Translations under genes and position numbers: made by a program
Notes under the pieces: model-generated
What the model saw: only the letters and a program-made list of their open reading frames with translations
Told to the model about the DNA's origin: nothing
The model's database searches: none
NCBI GenBank assembly: GCA_046497275.1
Contig: JAWOFX010000167.1
Coordinates: 1-32,000, forward strand
DNA: 32,000 nucleotides
Direction of reading: 5' to 3'
DNA from: Promethearchaeia archaeon
Lineage (GTDB): Archaea > Asgardarchaeota > Lokiarchaeia > Sigyniarchaeales > SOKP01
Shown here: positions 18,709-30,276 of the stretch, piece by piece
How the letters are laid out: each line of letters opens with the position of its first letter
Position numbering within the stretch: the first letter of the stretch is position 1

Positions 18709-19104
18709 ATGAATGAAAAAAACTTATCAGATCCTTCAAATATTGATAGGTTGAGTCAAATAATCCAGAGTCTTAAAGAGAAGGCAAATTTATCTGGAAT
18801 AATTCTATCCTATAGGGACGGTAGAACTATAGTAAAAGAGATTGAGGGAGTCCATCAGATTGATCAGTTTATACCTTTGATTGCTTCTGCATTACGTAGT
18901 GCTGAGGATTTGGGAATTACTGTTAATGGAAGTACTCTTCACAAAATAATTGCTCAATTAGAGAATTTTTCTATTATGATTTTAAAATGTAGTAGTAAAG
19001 ATGTCTTTTTAACTTTAATTATCAATGAAGCGTCTAATCTTAAACCCATTTTAGAAAATTATGAGGAACTTTCAAAAAAGATTGCAAAACATATAGAGAT
19101 TTGA
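18709..19104 (+). CDS. Roadblock/LC7 domain protein
   Basis: GIILSYRDGRTI, helix ASALRSAEDLG, beta strands IIAQLENFSIMILK and FLTLII; 131 aa. Confidence 0.8.
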   Translation: MNEKNLSDPSNIDRLSQIIQSLKEKANLSGIILSYRDGRTIVKEIEGVHQIDQFIPLIASALRSAEDLGITVNGSTLHKIIAQLENFSIMILKCSSKDVFLTLIINEASNLKPILENYEELSKKIAKHIEI

Positions 19105-22710: not shown

Positions 22711-24705
22711 CTATTTTGGTACATCAACATCCATTTTCTTACGTTCTTCTAAAAGATCTTCGACTACTGAGGGATCTGCTAAGGTAGTGACGTTCCCAAT
22801 ATCCGTTCCTGCTGCGATAGCTTTCAAAACTCGTCTCATAATTTTCCCGCTTCTAGTTTTTGGTAATGCATCAGCAAATTGTACGACATCTGGTTGAAAT
22901 ACAGGACCAATTTCTTGTCTTACATGCATCACAATTCCCTTTCTAAGTTCTTCTGTCTTTTCAACTCCTTCCATTAGCGTGACATACGCCCAGATAGCAT
23001 TTCCCTTGATTTTATGTGGGAAAGGTGCGACAGCAGCTTCAGCTACTTTCGGATGACTTACGATGGCTGATTCGACTTCCATTGTTCCAATTCTATGTCC
23101 AGAAACCTTTATCACATCATCTAATCGTCCTAATATCCAATAATATCCATCTTCATCCCTTCTTGCTCCATCTCCAGTATAATAATATCCCTCATATCTG
23201 CTCAAATAAGTGGATTTGAATCGTTCTGTATCACCCCAGACATCTCGAAGCATTCCTGGCCACGGTTGTGCCATGCAGAAGTATCCCCCCTCATGAGGTT
23301 CAGTCACCTCGTTCCCCTCCATATCAAAGATAATGGGTTTAATTCCTAAGAAAGGTAAACAACAAGATCCAGGTTTAGTAGGGGTAGCCGTAGCAATAGG
23401 TGTCATTATAAACCCACCAGTTTCAGTTTGCCAGTAGGTATCAACAATAGGACAGCGTTCCTTTCCAATGACTCGATGATACCAAGTCCATGCTTCAGGA
23501 TTAATAGGCTCTCCCACTGTTCCTAATACACGAAGAGAGCTTAAATCATGATTATTAACTGGATCTTCCCCAAATCTCATTAAAGCACGGATAGCGGTTG
23601 GTGCAGTATAAAATTGGGTTACTTTATGCCGCTCAACTATATCCCAGAATCGATCGACATCAGGGTATGTAGGAACACTTTCAAACATCAAGGTTGTAGC
23701 GCCATTTGCTAATGGTCCATACACGATATAACTATGACCAGTTATCCATCCTATATCTGCCGTACAGTACCAAATATCTCCTTCTTTATAGTTGAATACG
23801 ACTTTATGAGTATATGAGGTATATAAAATATATCCTGCTGTCGTATGTTTAACACCCTTGGGTTTTCCAGTGGTTCCGCTCGTATAAAGGATAAAGAGGG
23901 TATCTTCTGAATCCATTTCTTCACAATCACATTCTGTATCCATTCCATCAATAAAATCTTTATACCAGATATCCTTATCTGTGTGGGGTACTGGATTCCC
24001 AGTTCTCTCTACAACAATTATATTTTCGATAGTTGGCACATCATCAATAATTTGGGCTACATCATTCATTTTTGGATATGTTTTTCCTGCTCGTAAGGTC
24101 TGATCGCATGTAAATAAGAGTCTCGAATCCGAATCCTCAATTCTGTCTTTTACAGCTTCTTTTGAGAATCCACCGAATACAATAGAGTGGATAACCCCTA
24201 TTCTGGAACAAGCAAGCATAATAATAGCTAACTCTGGTATCATAGGGAGCCAAATAGTCACTCTATCTCCTTTTTCTAATCCCAATTTTTTCATACCATT
24301 TGCCACTTTGCATACTTCTTCCTTGAGCTGCTCATAGGTGAACTTTCTTACTTCCCCAGGTTCATCAGCTTCCCAGATAATTGCAATTTCATCACCTTTT
24401 CCATCCTCAATATGTCGGTCAATACAATTATAACTTACATTTAATTTACCGCCAACAAACCATTTGCCAGGAAATAGGTCGGTTTTCTCCCAGACTTTAT
24501 CATAAGGTTTGAACCAACTAATTGATTTAGCTTGTTCATCCCAAAAACCTTCCATATCTTCGACAGATTTTTTATAAAGTTCTTTATATTCCGTTAAGGA
24601 AATTCCCGTTTTAGCATAGTCGGGATTCAATTTAACCGGATCGAAGACACGTTTCTCTGAAAGAATGCTTTCCATTTTTTCTTCTTTTTCAGTCATTTTT
24701 TTCAC
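22711..24705 (-). CDS. acs: Acetyl-CoA synthetase (AMP-forming); start may be ATG at 24696
   Basis: YTSGTTGKPKG, ADIGWITGHSY, VDTYWQTETG, YYTGDGA, GRLDDVIKVSGHRIG, PKTRSGKIMRR. Confidence 0.96.
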   Translation of the reverse strand: MKKMTEKEEKMESILSEKRVFDPVKLNPDYAKTGISLTEYKELYKKSVEDMEGFWDEQAKSISWFKPYDKVWEKTDLFPGKWFVGGKLNVSYNCIDRHIEDGKGDEIAIIWEADEPGEVRKFTYEQLKEEVCKVANGMKKLGLEKGDRVTIWLPMIPELAIIMLACSRIGVIHSIVFGGFSKEAVKDRIEDSDSRLLFTCDQTLRAGKTYPKMNDVAQIIDDVPTIENIIVVERTGNPVPHTDKDIWYKDFIDGMDTECDCEEMDSEDTLFILYTSGTTGKPKGVKHTTAGYILYTSYTHKVVFNYKEGDIWYCTADIGWITGHSYIVYGPLANGATTLMFESVPTYPDVDRFWDIVERHKVTQFYTAPTAIRALMRFGEDPVNNHDLSSLRVLGTVGEPINPEAWTWYHRVIGKERCPIVDTYWQTETGGFIMTPIATATPTKPGSCCLPFLGIKPIIFDMEGNEVTEPHEGGYFCMAQPWPGMLRDVWGDTERFKSTYLSRYEGYYYTGDGARRDEDGYYWILGRLDDVIKVSGHRIGTMEVESAIVSHPKVAEAAVAPFPHKIKGNAIWAYVTLMEGVEKTEELRKGIVMHVRQEIGPVFQPDVVQFADALPKTRSGKIMRRVLKAIAAGTDIGNVTTLADPSVVEDLLEERKKMDVDVPK

Positions 24706-24969
24706 AAGATTTATAGTAAAGAATAATTAACACTATAGAAAAGATTAATATTAGATAAAATAATAAATTTTTTACGAACAATTTTTATGTGATCATAAGT
24801 CGAAATTATGAAATTCAAACATAATGTTTAGATTTTCTACAATCACGCATTCAGAATCATAAAATCTTCTAATAAATCAATATTGCATATAAAAAATTAT
24901 TAAAGAAAAATGAAGATAGTAACATTTATCAAGTATCCAAATTATTCAAAATAATTTCGATCATAAAAA

Positions 24970-26868
24970 ATGGAAAATTTAGAGAAGTTAGATTCAAATT
25001 GGAGAAAAAAGTGGAGCGATAAAGAAATCGACATTGAACATGCTATTAAAAAGATCATACCAGGTAATAGAGTATTTATTGATTCTGGATGTTCCGAACC
25101 ACAAGCCCTCACTAAAGAATTAATTAGACAATCAGAACGTTTAGTTGATACGGAAATAATTCATTTTCTTACCATCGGCCCGAATAAATACTTTCAAACA
25201 GATAAACGAGAGGATGTTTTTAGACATAATGCCCTTTTTATTGGTGATACCTTGCGAGAGGAGGTAAATAGTGGACAAGCAGATTACACCCCGATTAATG
25301 TGAGTGAAATACCGAAATTGTTTCTATCCGGAAGAAAATATATTGATGTCGCGTTAATTCAAGTTTCTCTTCCAGATCAATATGGTTTTTGTTCATTCGG
25401 GATAAATGTTGATATTGCAAAACCAATTGCTCAGTCAGCCTATTTGACGATAGCAGAAATAAATCCCCAAATGCCAAGGACATTGGGGAATAGTTTCATT
25501 CATTTAAAAGAAATAGATTATTTTATTTATCACGATCATCCTCTCTTAAAATTCCATTTTGATGAACCCACTAAAGTTGTAAAAAAAATAGGGAAAAATC
25601 TTTCAAATTTAGTACAAGATAAATCAACGATACATATAGGCTTTGGAGATTTACCTCATAATATTCTGAAATACTTATCAAAGAAGAAAGATTTAGGAAT
25701 GCACTCTCATTATGTAACAGATGCAATAATTCCGCTGATTGAGAATGGAGTTTTAACTTGCAGGAAGAAAAATTTTCATCCTGAAAAGATCGTTACGAGT
25801 TTTGCACTCGGTTCAAGAAAATTATATGATTTTGTCGATAATAATCCTTATATCGAATTTTATCCTTCGGATTATGTATGTAATCCGAAATATATTAGTA
25901 AAAATAAAAATATGATATCTATTAATTCAGCTCGTCAAATAGATTTAACGGGACAAGTCAATGCATCTACAGAAGGATATTCCTTTTATTCTGGATTTGG
26001 AGAGACCGTTGATTTTATTAGGGGAGCAGCTTTTTCAGAGGGTGGAAAACCAATCATTATTATGCCTTCCACTACAAGAGATGAAAAGCAATCAAGAATA
26101 GTTTCTCATTTGGATGAAGGAGCAGGAATCTTACTATCAAGGGGTGATGTTCATTATGTCGTAACTGAATGGGGTGTTGCATATTTACACGGAAAATCTA
26201 TTAGAGAAAGAGTAATTGAGTTGATTAGTATTGCGCATCCCAAATTTAGGGAACAATTATTGCATGAGGCAAAATATTTAAATTATATTTATTCTGATCA
26301 AATGCTTCCGGTGGATGAGAATGGTTTTATAGTAAGATATCCAAAAGAATATGAAACTATCTTTAAAACTAAGAACGGAGAGGAAATTTCTATAAGACCA
26401 TTAAAGACTACTGATGAAGAGATGCTTAAAGAATTATATTATTCTCTAAATGAAAGAGATCGATACTTAAGGTTTTTCGAAGTTAGAAATGAATTTGCTC
26501 ATACCAAAACCCAAAATGAAGTCAATATTGATTATAATGATATTTTCTCAATAGGGGCATTTATTGGCGAGATTGGGAATGAGAAAATGATTGGAAATGC
26601 TACATATTATTATAATCCTAATAAAAACTCAGCAGAGTTTAGTTTTGTGGTACATAAAGATTGGAGGGGTGTGGGATTAGGCTCATATCTTTATAATTAT
26701 ATGATAATAATCGCGAAGGAGAAAGGAATCCAATCCTTCTACGGAAATATTCATATCGAAAATAAGGGGACTGTACATGTTATAAAAAAGGCAGGGAAAG
26801 TGAGGATAACGCCCCCAGAACTTGGAGGAAAAGAACTTTTTTATGAAGTTGATTTTGAGGAAGAATAA
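24970..26868 (+). CDS. Acetyl-CoA hydrolase/CoA-transferase-like domain fused to a C-terminal GNAT acetyltransferase
   Basis: CSFGINVD, PRTLG, NSARQIDLTGQV, DFIRGA, YVVTEWGVA; GNAT with AEFSFVV and WRGVGLG. Confidence 0.9.
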   Translation: MENLEKLDSNWRKKWSDKEIDIEHAIKKIIPGNRVFIDSGCSEPQALTKELIRQSERLVDTEIIHFLTIGPNKYFQTDKREDVFRHNALFIGDTLREEVNSGQADYTPINVSEIPKLFLSGRKYIDVALIQVSLPDQYGFCSFGINVDIAKPIAQSAYLTIAEINPQMPRTLGNSFIHLKEIDYFIYHDHPLLKFHFDEPTKVVKKIGKNLSNLVQDKSTIHIGFGDLPHNILKYLSKKKDLGMHSHYVTDAIIPLIENGVLTCRKKNFHPEKIVTSFALGSRKLYDFVDNNPYIEFYPSDYVCNPKYISKNKNMISINSARQIDLTGQVNASTEGYSFYSGFGETVDFIRGAAFSEGGKPIIIMPSTTRDEKQSRIVSHLDEGAGILLSRGDVHYVVTEWGVAYLHGKSIRERVIELISIAHPKFREQLLHEAKYLNYIYSDQMLPVDENGFIVRYPKEYETIFKTKNGEEISIRPLKTTDEEMLKELYYSLNERDRYLRFFEVRNEFAHTKTQNEVNIDYNDIFSIGAFIGEIGNEKMIGNATYYYNPNKNSAEFSFVVHKDWRGVGLGSYLYNYMIIIAKEKGIQSFYGNIHIENKGTVHVIKKAGKVRITPPELGGKELFYEVDFEEE

Positions 26869-27056: not shown

Positions 27057-27758
27057 ATGGAAATTAAGGGGATAATTAAATCAATAGATAAATGGGATCA
27101 AAGTATCATCCTAAAAATTAATGGGAGAGGAGGGAAATTCATAACCACTTTATTGCGTCTTTTTTCATTTCTTGGCAGAGAGACAATATGGTTATTTTTA
27201 CTGGCTTATTTTTCATTTGTATGGTTTGATCCTAAAATTTTCTCATACATTGGGGTTGGTTATACTTTAGGATTGATTATTATTGTTCCTATTAAACAAA
27301 TTGTCCATAGAACGAGACCTTTTAATGAATTGGAAAAAATTATATTATATGAACGGAAGTCGACTTCTGGCAGTTTTCCATCATGGCATTCTTATAATAC
27401 CGCTTCGCAAGCGATTATAATGGGGTATCTCTTTTCTTCATCTTTACTTACGATTATATTTTTATTTATCGCTGGAGTGGTGGCCTATTCCAGAGTACAT
27501 GTCGGATCTCATTATCCGAGTGATGTTATAAATGGCTATATTATTGGAATAGTTGCTGGATTAAGTAGTATTTTTCTATTTGGGAAATATTTATTTAATT
27601 TCATCATATATCTGAATGAAATTAGCAACATTAATTTTGTATTTTATTCATTCAATCCCTTAATATTTAGCAATATTGGATATATAATGTTATGTATATT
27701 AATATTTGGAGGGATTTTTATTCTCTCGATTTACCGATATTTAAAGGGTATTTTGTAA
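27057..27758 (+). CDS. PAP2 family phosphatase
   Basis: K..HRTRP, SFPSWH, SRVHVGSHYPSDV. Confidence 0.88.
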   Translation: MEIKGIIKSIDKWDQSIILKINGRGGKFITTLLRLFSFLGRETIWLFLLAYFSFVWFDPKIFSYIGVGYTLGLIIIVPIKQIVHRTRPFNELEKIILYERKSTSGSFPSWHSYNTASQAIIMGYLFSSSLLTIIFLFIAGVVAYSRVHVGSHYPSDVINGYIIGIVAGLSSIFLFGKYLFNFIIYLNEISNINFVFYSFNPLIFSNIGYIMLCILIFGGIFILSIYRYLKGIL

Positions 27759-27795: not shown

Positions 27796-29034
27796 TCAGT
27801 GGTCTAGTTGCTTTTTCTTATTGAAGAGTTGTTTTAATTCATCCAAAACTTGACCGCGAACATTTTGTTCACTTGTTTCTCTAATTTGATCCGATGTTCT
27901 TATCTCGATTGGAACTCCTGATTGGGCGATATGAAATGCTCCACTCTCAACAGCATTTAATCGAGCGTCAATTTCATTTAATTGTTCTGAAATGCTTTCT
28001 GAAAGTTTAATAACAGCATTCATCACTTCCTCTAAAGTATTACCTAAACCTTCTACTTTTTTCAATGTGGGATCTGTTAGATTATTAGTACTGATAATAT
28101 CCTTTAAATATTTAGAGAATTCCGGTTTGGAAAATTTGGAATAGATTGAACTTAGGTAAGTTTCATAATTAAAATAATATTCCTTGTTTTTGAAAAGATC
28201 TTCCATTTTTTCTTTTATGAGTTCGATATTCAATTTTATTTTTGGATCATCCTTAATATCTGGATCAAACTTGTGAATTAAGATTAAGATATATGGAATC
28301 TCTTCTAATATCACTAAAATATCAAGGATTTGCCTAAAATAATCAAAAGATTCATCAAACCTTTCTGGATCTTGAACATCGATGACATAGATAAGCAAAT
28401 CTATTTGTAGAAAATATTTTTCAGGTTCCTTTAGGTATTTATCCCTATATGATTTTTGACCCCCGAAATCCCAAATAAATAAATCTAAATTTTGTTTCTC
28501 AAAAGTTTGTCGATTCACTCCTTTAGTTGGTTCTAAATTAGAGAGTTCTTGTATACCCTTTTCCATCCCAACTTTTGAAACGATAGCAGTTTTACCAGCA
28601 TTATCTAAACCAACAACGATAACTTTTTGAGCATTTTTATCTAATATTTGTGTTTCTCCATTAATTTGTTTTATTAGATTACTAAGTGTTATAGCTTTTT
28701 TTATATTAATCTCTAAATCGGAATATTTTTTTTTATAGATTTCTAATTTTATTTCTACATCTTGAGAGAACTCAGAATCTTTCTTAGACTTGCTTTGTTC
28801 TTTAATAAATTTGTTTAATGGTGCATCTTTATCTAGTTGAGCTAATTCTTCGATATTTGAAGTTTTTAAAATCTCACTGATTACTCGTGCTTGGTTCTTA
28901 CCTAAAAATTTATAAGCTGAAATAGGGAGCTTAAGAAGATCTTCAAGATTATTAAATTCTTTCTCTAAATATTCCTCATCTAAGAATCTTCTAAAAACTT
29001 CTATTACATCGGAACTTTTAGTATCTGAAGTAAT
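27796..29034 (-). CDS. Arf/Rag-like small GTPase with N-terminal helical domain and C-terminal coiled coil; probable ATT start
   Basis: G1 GLDNAGKT lies upstream of the ATG at 28566 in the same open frame; G3 WDFGGQ, G4 HKFD; frame open to 29040; SD GAGGAGTGA at 29049-29041. Confidence 0.85.
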   Translation of the reverse strand: MTSDTKSSDVIEVFRRFLDEEYLEKEFNNLEDLLKLPISAYKFLGKNQARVISEILKTSNIEELAQLDKDAPLNKFIKEQSKSKKDSEFSQDVEIKLEIYKKKYSDLEINIKKAITLSNLIKQINGETQILDKNAQKVIVVGLDNAGKTAIVSKVGMEKGIQELSNLEPTKGVNRQTFEKQNLDLFIWDFGGQKSYRDKYLKEPEKYFLQIDLLIYVIDVQDPERFDESFDYFRQILDILVILEEIPYILILIHKFDPDIKDDPKIKLNIELIKEKMEDLFKNKEYYFNYETYLSSIYSKFSKPEFSKYLKDIISTNNLTDPTLKKVEGLGNTLEEVMNAVIKLSESISEQLNEIDARLNAVESGAFHIAQSGVPIEIRTSDQIRETSEQNVRGQVLDELKQLFNKKKQLDH

Positions 29035-29358: not shown

Positions 29359-30276
29359 ATGCCATCCAATGTCCATAATGATGAATTTTTAGAATTAACC
29401 ATAAAGAACCCTTGTTGCGACTCTCCAAAAGTATCACAAGAGGATGGATTTTATGTTTGTATGAATTGTGGACTTGTTTTTTCCCGGATTATAGATGATT
29501 CTCCTCGCCGCGCGTTTACTGCTGAAGAGATTGAAAAACGAAAAACTAATGAGCGTGTCTATAGTCCTATAGGTCCGCGTACAATAATAAGAGGCAGTCG
29601 AGATGCGAGAGGTACATTATTAAGTCCTAAATATAAATCCAAATTTAATAGATTAGCAAAAATACATCGATCACTTACAACAAGCTTTGAACGAAATCTA
29701 TGGATTGCCCTTCCAAATTTGCAAAGACTACAAAAAAAATTATGTATCCCAGATCAAGTAGCTGATGATGCTTTACGGATATATACACAAACCGTTAAAA
29801 AAAAATTAACGATGGGGCGTTCAATAGATACTCTATTATCTGCTTCTATTTTTTGTGCCTTACGTATTCATGGAATACCCAGAACCTTAGAAGAAATAAC
29901 TAGTGCGGCTCAAATTACAAAGAAAAAAGTAATTAAAAGTTATAGGTTGATATTTATGGAAATTTTACCGAAGCTAAATCTTAAAGTCCAACACTTCACT
30001 TCGGATCGCTATGTGGATAAGTTTAATGATGAATTAAATCTCTCTATGAAATGTAGAAATATTGCTGTAAAGTTAATTAAGAATGCAAGAGAAAATGGTT
30101 TTAATTCCGCTGGAAAGGATCCTAAAGGAATCGCTGCTGCATCTATTTATATTGCTTCTAAAATGTGTAATGAAAATAAAACTCAGAAAGAAGTCTCGGA
30201 TTTGGCAAACATAACAGAAGTAACTTTAAGAATGCGTGTAAAAGATCTTCAATCTTTTAATAGTATTCAAAGTTAA
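29359..30276 (+). CDS. tfb: Transcription initiation factor IIB (TFB) paralogue
   Basis: Zn ribbon CC..P...GFYVCMNCG; two cyclin repeats (GRSIDTLLSASI, PRTLEEI; GKDPKGIAAASIY, TQKEV, TEVTLR). Confidence 0.93.
   Translation: MPSNVHNDEFLELTIKNPCCDSPKVSQEDGFYVCMNCGLVFSRIIDDSPRRAFTAEEIEKRKTNERVYSPIGPRTIIRGSRDARGTLLSPKYKSKFNRLAKIHRSLTTSFERNLWIALPNLQRLQKKLCIPDQVADDALRIYTQTVKKKLTMGRSIDTLLSASIFCALRIHGIPRTLEEITSAAQITKKKVIKSYRLIFMEILPKLNLKVQHFTSDRYVDKFNDELNLSMKCRNIAVKLIKNARENGFNSAGKDPKGIAAASIYIASKMCNENKTQKEVSDLANITEVTLRMRVKDLQSFNSIQS

Follow-up and report, generated by a model that had tools for sequence, protein, structure and literature searches.

A class I CoA-transferase fold with replaced catalytic residues, fused to a Pat-type GNAT and divergent from acs in a Promethearchaeia genome: a candidate acetylation switch

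The window considered here is a stretch of 32,000 nucleotides (nt) from a Promethearchaeia archaeon (assembly GCA_046497275.1, contig JAWOFX010000167.1, positions 1 to 32,000; GC content about 29%), in which two long open reading frames (ORFs) lie head-to-head. The first, on the minus strand (22711-24705), is acs, encoding an AMP-forming acetyl-CoA synthetase (Acs) of 664 amino acids (aa) when read from the GTG at 24705, and the second, on the plus strand (24970-26868), encodes a 632-aa fusion of a coenzyme A (CoA)-transferase-fold domain, hereafter the N-domain, with a GNAT acetyltransferase domain related to the protein acetyltransferase Pat. They are separated by a divergent, AT-rich intergenic region of 264 nt (24706-24969). 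The start of Acs orthologues matches the ATG at 24694-24696 (MTEKEEKMES...) and not the GTG listed, so the true start of acs probably lies three codons downstream. A preliminary description of this locus had proposed that the fusion is an acyl-CoA-sensing regulator of Acs, analogous to the known Pat enzymes and built on a different, catalytically dead scaffold.

The identity of Acs is well supported, as the protein scores 953 bits with the model TIGR02188 (cut-off 725) and 982 bits with NF001208, a match at the equivalog level for AMP-forming acetyl-CoA synthetases, having the Pfam domains PF16177 (ACAS_N), PF00501 (AMP-binding) and PF13193 (AMP-binding_C) and the lysine of the A10 motif. It is the sole true acs found in the genome, since a search of the genome with its own sequence returned one match at 100% and a runner-up only 30% identical, and about 15 further AMP-forming ligases are encoded there. 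The regulatory lysine of PKTRSGK (aa 615-621), which had already been pointed out in the preliminary description, is confirmed as Lys621, the last residue of the motif, with its codon at 22843-22845 on the minus strand; the motif with this lysine is invariant in an alignment of 16 Asgard Acs sequences, and we take Lys621 to be the counterpart of the acetylated Lys609 in enterobacterial Acs. Five SIR2 (sirtuin) genes are present in the same genome. One of them adjoins two genes of AMP-forming acyl-CoA ligases (contig C7: 438-971, 1560-3104 and 3221-4282; L080, L090), and this cluster could be a second acylation-control locus. In one related genome (G135, L037:4228-6237), the acs orthologue adjacent to the fusion is interrupted, giving one ORF of 430 aa and another of 195 aa, due to either a frameshift or pseudogene formation or a sequencing error.

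Regarding the fusion protein, its domain calls are PF02550 (1.2e-27) and PF13336 (2.8e-61), followed by the GNAT family PF00583 (7e-09). The CoA-transferase-like domain (aa 10-435; 24997-26274, plus strand) falls, within the acetyl-CoA hydrolase/transferase family, in the subgroup of 4-hydroxybutyrate CoA-transferases, with the solved structures 9VAG (E 3e-115) and 3GK7 (5e-91) among its sequence matches in the Protein Data Bank (PDB). The AlphaFold2 model of the fusion has a predicted local distance difference test (pLDDT) score of 87.2 and a predicted template modelling score of 0.83, and the domain model was aligned by Foldseek to 3GK7 and 2OAS with template modelling (TM) scores, normalized to the target, of 0.91-0.94. 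Thus, the two-lobed fold of class I CoA-transferases, composed of PF02550 and PF13336, is present, and 86 of the 113 positions conserved in the family are retained in the domain.

Besides this overall similarity, the residues on which class I catalysis depends are replaced. As the preliminary description had reported, the motif GMHSHY (aa 243-248) stands where the family has G(I/V)H(S/T)E, with His247 (CAT, 25708-25710) in place of the catalytic glutamate nucleophile and two base changes away from a Glu codon (GAA or GAG), and GFGETVDF (aa 342-349) replaces the usual GGQxDF; both readings proved exact. In HMMER alignments to five solved 4-hydroxybutyrate CoA-transferases, ungapped over aa 215-360, His247 falls under the glutamate (residue 238 of 3GK7) and Gly-Glu-Thr falls under Gly-Gly-Gln, so the possibility that a different glutamate reaches the catalytic site by realignment was rejected. 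Further replacements were found in the same region: His222 (CAT, 25633-25635) for the glutamine of the QxGIG loop, Phe225 (25642-25644) for the gating Ile/Val of this loop, which corresponds to the G-V227-G gate of RipA (PMC3180442), Cys304 (TGT, 25879-25881) for the conserved asparagine of DY(V/I)N, and Glu345-Thr346 (GAG ACC, 26002-26007) for the second glycine and the glutamine of GGQ. The asparagine replaced by Cys304 is conserved in all five aligned solved homologues and in 96% of 57 canonical family members. The domain model has its lowest confidence in the loop carrying Glu345-Thr346 (aa 331-350; 25960-26019), with block pLDDT values of 61-73 compared to more than 90 around it.

These replacements are shared by the close relatives of the protein. 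The source names of close homologues of the fusion point to metagenome-assembled genomes (MAGs) of Promethearchaeota, Lokiarchaeota, Hodarchaeota and Thorarchaeota. Among 121 homologues with at least 70% identity, position 222 is His in 120, position 304 is Cys in 120, position 345 is acidic (Glu or Asp) in all 121 and position 346 is Thr in 120. Position 247 is His in 113 and Tyr, Gln or Leu in the remaining eight, with no Glu at all, and a sequencing accident at His247 was rejected on this account. When 18 orthologues were compared with the 57 canonical members at positions at least 85% conserved in the family, few positions had been refixed in the clade of the window, and these were grouped at the active site: Q222H, I225F/N, E247H, S250T, N304C, G345E/D and Q346T. 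In nine genomes carrying both this fusion and a paralogue that keeps the glutamate, the mean pairwise identity of the Glu-less N-domain was 81.6%, compared to 81.3% for the N-domain of the paralogue, and that of the GNAT was 75.7%, below both. The Glu-less domain is thus not decaying, and the selection acting on it is undiminished; decay to a pseudogene was likewise rejected, as the frame is intact and the conservation equals that of the intact paralogue. The description of the scaffold as simply dead did not survive this comparison, as the catalytic centre has been rebuilt with a conserved His/His/Cys/acid set.

The consequences for catalysis can be read from the class I enzyme AarC, where Glu294 is the nucleophile, its substitution E294A abolishes the activity, and the carboxamide of Asn347 forms the internal oxyanion hole, while the external oxyanion hole (Gly388, in the GGQ motif) is strictly conserved among class I enzymes; Gln267, Glu294, Asn347 and Gly388 stand no more than a few angstroms from one another and from the acyl group (PMC4876117). 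Glu294, Asn347 and Gly388 would correspond to positions 247, 304 and 345 of the fusion, according to a mapping derived from HMMER envelope offsets and from the identity of the motifs to those of the 4-hydroxybutyrate enzymes. The glutamate nucleophile, the glycine of the external oxyanion hole and the carboxamide of the internal one are all absent from the fusion. Because the nucleophile and both putative oxyanion-hole residues are replaced, CoA transfer by a ping-pong mechanism through a Glu-thioester is very unlikely to operate in this domain.

The C-terminal part of the fusion presents the opposite situation, with the catalytic residues preserved. The closest solved relatives of aa 440-632 are Escherichia coli PatZ (E 3.6e-17), Sulfolobus Pat, Streptomyces lividans PatA and Mycobacterium tuberculosis Pat, and the GNAT domain (aa 455-620; 26332-26829, plus strand) also matches the mycobacterial Pat model of NCBIfam, NF058543, at 2.7e-11. 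The PatZ alignment begins at aa 455 and covers the Pat-specific N-terminal segment, which contains YLRFFE (26464-26481), and it places E809-F810 of PatZ on E556-F557 of the fusion. Glu556 (26635-26637), the counterpart of the catalytic E809 of PatZ (PMC12184503) and of E123 of S. lividans PatA, is found in all 121 close homologues. The acetyl-CoA pyrophosphate loop, WRGVGLG (aa 565-571; 26662-26682), is intact from R566 to G571, as first described, and the pattern RGxG(I/L/V)(G/A) is conserved in the 121 homologues. Structurally, the domain resembles the GNAT that docks Acs in the solved PatA-Acs complex (4U5Y chain A; Foldseek TM score, normalized to the target, 0.93, root-mean-square deviation 1.8). 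By these features, the GNAT of the fusion can be classed as Pat-type.

The modelled complex of the GNAT (aa 445-632) with the C-terminal part of Acs (aa 525-664) scored 0.82, compared to 0.00 for the best of three controls, and since a similar complex has already been solved (4U5Y), this score demonstrates likeness to a known docking mode and not binding. The pass mark applied to this model is attained by 58 of 80 solved complexes and by two of 110 mismatched pairs. The model runs share at least 93% of their contacts, with a partner pLDDT of at least 89, and the predicted position of Lys621 is at the catalytic site of the GNAT, where it contacts residues 501-503 and 593, with E556 of the GNAT contacting residues 617-619 of Acs.

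The pairing of the two genes is conserved among related genomes. In the family to which the window belongs, the Glu-less orthologue is divergent from acs in all 16 genomes where upstream DNA is available, at distances of 174-2849 nt, and the intact paralogue has no acs in its flanks (up to about 8 kb) at any of 11 loci; as the genomes are related, these and the following counts represent a few conserved arrangements and not many independent events. In two genera, variable small genes are inserted between the Glu-less fusion and acs. In a second Asgard family, fusions that retain the glutamate are divergent from a bona fide acs (53-56% identical, with PKTRSGK kept) at 10 of 10 loci, and in a third family acs is convergent with the fusion, 71 nt apart. 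Three other Glu-less lineages, with Gln, Cys or Phe at position 247 (one from Desulfobacterales, one from a Heimdall-type MAG and one being the Phe-type sister of the clade of the window), have no acs within 6 kb (3.3 kb upstream for one), and acs was likewise absent around another three fusions (P0133, of a Deltaproteobacteria MAG, and P0136 and P0142, from metagenome contigs), two of them on contigs of only about 3 kb. Consequently, the idea that loss of the glutamate goes together with acs adjacency holds inside the family of the window (16 of 16 against 0 of 11) but had to be abandoned as a general rule, as Glu-retaining fusions are linked to acs elsewhere and three Glu-less lineages are not.

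A further state of the locus is found in one genus (g4) of the same family, where a GNAT-only gene of 175-193 aa is divergent from acs (G144, L096:7977-8558; G129, L098:8110-8637). In G129, an out-of-frame relic of 41 residues of the fusion N-terminus is located just upstream of this gene (L098:7986-8117), and the GNAT of this genus groups with those of the Glu-less fusions (support 0.997), so it represents a natural deletion of the CoA-transferase module. In total, three distinct clades of the fusion tree show the linkage to acs, which persists where the N-domain is deleted. As the GNAT stands beside acs with the module intact, rebuilt or deleted, the conserved relation is the one between the GNAT and acs, and the loss of the glutamate is a later, lineage-specific remodelling of this core.

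The fusion architecture itself is not rare, as a search of 1.8 billion representatives recovered dozens of clusters at 50% identity, with proteins of 600-640 aa and source names that also include Heimdallarchaeota, Deltaproteobacteria and Desulfobacterales, labelled in the databases as "acyl-CoA hydrolase/GNAT superfamily N-acetyltransferase" (JGI) or "GNAT family N-acetyltransferase" (NCBI). Many of them retain GxH(S/T)E and GGQ and may be active transferases, and others have Asp at position 247 or no acid at all (Gln, Cys, Val, Phe or Gly). A second fusion with all the canonical motifs (GVHSEVF and GIGGQADF) is encoded in the genome of the window, with 647 aa when joined; it spans the ends of two contigs (L002:1456-2852, at the end of C97, and L003:1-738, at the start of C16), and since these overlap by 191 identical bases, the interruption comes from the assembly and the gene itself is not broken. 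A FastTree phylogeny of the N-domain recovers the Glu-less clade with a support of 0.993, joins it to a single Phe-type sequence as its sister (1.0) and nests it among Glu-retaining fusions, and the node that would derive it from a duplication of the intact paralogue of its family has a support of 0.116. No publication on CoA-transferase-GNAT fusions, Glu-retaining or Glu-less, was found in a full-text literature search, which did not cover subscription journals. Some fusions carry an extra extension of about 330 residues, either N-terminal (P0128 and P0132, 960-967 aa) or C-terminal (P0162, 1013 aa; P0172 and P0227, 955-965 aa). In addition, the Desulfobacterales fusion (L053:5971-7905; P0278/P0138), which independently lost the glutamate (Gln at 247), has Asp for the second glycine of GGQ (GIGDQVDF), and the loss of the glutamate may repeatedly be accompanied by an acid acquired at position 345.

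Comparing the fusion with the known systems, the closest functional parallels are the Type I/II Pat enzymes (Salmonella enterica Pat; E. coli PatZ/YfiQ, 9IT0/9ISQ; S. lividans PatA, 4NXY/4U5Y), with which it shares the GNAT subfamily, the catalytic glutamate, the acetyl-CoA loop, the N-terminal segment and a large module derived from an acyl-CoA enzyme that has lost a catalytic residue. As in the systems where such a Pat works with a CobB-type sirtuin, the conserved lysine of Acs is the likely target, and sirtuins are encoded in the genome. However, the module of the fusion has the class I CoA-transferase fold (about 440 aa), compared to the ADP-forming acyl-CoA synthetase fold of about 700 aa in the Type I/II enzymes; only PF02550 and PF13336 precede the GNAT, and PatZ matches the GNAT region alone. 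Moreover, the fusion presents a conserved new residue set and not a single missing residue, its host is an Asgard archaeon, and it has relatives with an intact catalytic centre that are also linked to acs. The Type III enzymes (M. tuberculosis and Mycobacterium smegmatis Pat, with cAMP; Micromonospora PatB, with ACT; Myxococcus ActC, with NADP+), known to target Acs and acyl-CoA synthetases, likewise have an N-terminal module, a ligand-binding regulatory domain of about 300-400 aa, before a Pat-type GNAT, but its fold is unrelated and no CoA-transferase is found among these domains. Two published schemes (PMC12184503, PMC8556138) divide the GNATs into five types and recognise regulatory domains of four kinds (ACD-like, cAMP, ACT and NADP+), none of them a CoA-transferase-derived module.

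From the side of the CoA-transferases, the 4-hydroxybutyrate and butyryl-CoA:acetate enzymes (AbfT/Cat2, 3GK7, 2OAS and 9VAG; RipA, 3QLI) and AarC (4EU3) share the two-domain fold with 30-41% identity, but the domain of the window differs from them by the His, Cys and Glu/Asp that stand for Glu, Asn and Gly, together with Q222H and Q346T, and by being fused to a GNAT. The Glu-retaining fusions of Asgard archaea, Deltaproteobacteria and Desulfobacterales have the same architecture (about 610-640 aa) and differ by the glutamate that the clade of the window, with its one Phe-type sister, has lost. The initial proposal is then upheld in that the GNAT is Pat-type, the nucleophile is lost, the pairing with acs is conserved and the fold is absent from the published lists of regulatory domains cited above, but not in its premise of a dead scaffold: the scaffold was not dead at the origin of the fusion, as most fusions, including the paralogue of the same genome, keep the glutamate and GGQ.

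Taken together, the reading favoured here, with a probability of about 0.6, is that the fusion is a Pat-type lysine acetyltransferase that acetylates Lys621 of Acs, with its Glu-less N-domain serving as an accessory regulatory or docking module. The C-terminal GNAT would take acetyl-CoA and acetylate Lys621 of the divergently encoded Acs, which would block the adenylation step and shut off the ATP-consuming activation of acetate, and one of the five sirtuins of the genome would reverse the modification. Having no CoA transfer to perform, the N-domain would be retained under strong selection as an accessory module, acting as a CoA/acyl-CoA-binding or otherwise ligand-gated regulator and as a platform for substrate docking. 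The parallel would be the dead ADP-forming acyl-CoA synthetase module of PatZ, whose roles are to bind acetyl-CoA, to gate the GNAT, to shape the pocket for Acs and to assist in its docking (PMC12184503, PMC8556138), and the N-domain may sense acyl-CoA.

Several observations, however, weigh against this interpretation. The other AMP-forming ligases of the genome could also be targets, the fusion is often separated from acs by one or two genes unrelated to the pair, as is the case in many genomes, and the genomes compared are kin sharing synteny, so the 16 of 16 count is essentially one orthologous arrangement. The high score of the complex model may only reflect its likeness to 4U5Y. As to the module, a carboxylate at the former oxyanion hole might disfavour thioester binding, the N-domain is not essential to the relation between the GNAT and acs because it is dispensable in genus g4, and, given the acs-linked fusions found elsewhere with their catalytic centre complete, a sensor without catalysis cannot be taken as the rule for fusions of this kind.

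Some of these points lead to other explanations, the first concerning what the rebuilt pocket does. The N-domain could house a new enzymatic activity, or a site for a metal or for redox sensing, and not be a passive sensor, with His222, His247, Cys304 and Glu/Asp345 forming a metal site or a Cys-His-acid triad in the acyl-CoA pocket, and such a site might undergo self-acylation with acyl-CoA, cleave thioesters or signal the metal or redox state, thereby feeding or gating the GNAT. The changes are all at the former catalytic centre and nearly invariant, the AarC counterparts of these residues are mutually close and near the acyl group (PMC4876117), the selection is not relaxed, and the Desulfobacterales lineage acquired its acid at position 345 independently. 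On the other hand, His247, which a triad requires, is another residue in eight of the 121 homologues, the loop of residue 345 is the part of the model least to be trusted, other Glu-less lineages carry different residues, and genus g4 discarded the domain altogether. This explanation is considered unlikely. Equally unlikely is its corollary, that the retooled N-domain is an enzyme of a new type or a metal/redox/acyl-CoA-charged sensor, whose covalent or metal-bound state gates the lysine acetylation of Acs in these Lokiarchaeal relatives of the eukaryotic ancestor. A pure scaffold, where the domain only assists folding, oligomerisation and assembly with no ligand-dependent regulation, would account for a fold retained after the loss of its catalytic residues and for a natural GNAT-only derivative that persists beside acs, and has precedents in the tight homodimer of RipA (PMC3180442) and in the dependence of PatZ activity on its oligomeric (tetramer) regulatory domain (PMC12184503). 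Such a scaffold is not expected to fix a polar His/His/Cys/acid set in a buried pocket, nor to keep the pocket under stricter conservation than the remainder of the domain, and it is the most doubtful of the alternatives.

The remaining explanation concerns the substrate and not the module. The fusion may be a general or differently targeted acyltransferase, acting on other AMP-forming ligases, other proteins or a small molecule, with the pairing reflecting a shared transcriptional control of acetate and acyl-CoA metabolism. The abundance of ligases in the genome would agree with it, as would the many substrates acetylated by PatZ-type enzymes (PMC12184503), the bacterial, Heimdall-type and further metagenome fusions sampled with no acs nearby, and the intact paralogue in the genome of the window, which adjoins no acs. 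Against it, the linkage to acs recurs in three clades of the fusion tree and outlasts the deletion of the N-domain, the complex model sets Lys621 at the catalytic glutamate with all three controls at zero, and the characterised members of the same GNAT subfamily act on Acs-type lysines. This explanation is held to be slightly less probable than a metal site or triad and slightly more so than a scaffold, and a Pat-type acetyltransferase of Acs is still preferred.

Regarding the surroundings of the locus, eukaryote-like signature genes are found nearby in the window, encoding a roadblock/MAPKK1_Int-like protein (18709-19104; a weak match, below the cut-off), a Gtr1/RagA-Arf-like GTPase (27796-28566) and the transcription factor TFB (29359-30276), which fit an Asgard origin. 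Downstream of the fusion gene, a membrane phosphatase of the PAP2 family is encoded on the plus strand (27057-27758). In a sister genus, the fusion is followed by a gene of 264 aa (starting MKFKYTDYHIH) and by a gene of 235-239 aa, about the size of the PAP2 gene (L033:3461-4977; L034:6382-7910), and the synteny downstream of the fusion may be conserved as well. Twelve salt-lake metatranscriptome runs contain 27-47% of the sampled words, a figure that carries no claim on transcription of the locus.

The textbook example of metabolic control by lysine acetylation in bacteria is Acs, whose acetylation by Pat is reversed by a sirtuin, and the way in which cells sense their metabolic state is set by the regulatory modules of the Pat enzymes. 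The CoA-transferase module described here is widespread and tied to acs in several Asgard lineages, and its three natural states, intact, rebuilt and deleted, offer a ready comparative series for its contribution. For metabolic reconstructions, such genes should not be counted as 4-hydroxybutyrate or butyrate CoA-transferases. The acetylation switch proposed for this locus would be among the first specific predictions of its kind, by lysine acetylation, in the Asgard archaea, the nearest relatives of eukaryotes known among prokaryotes.

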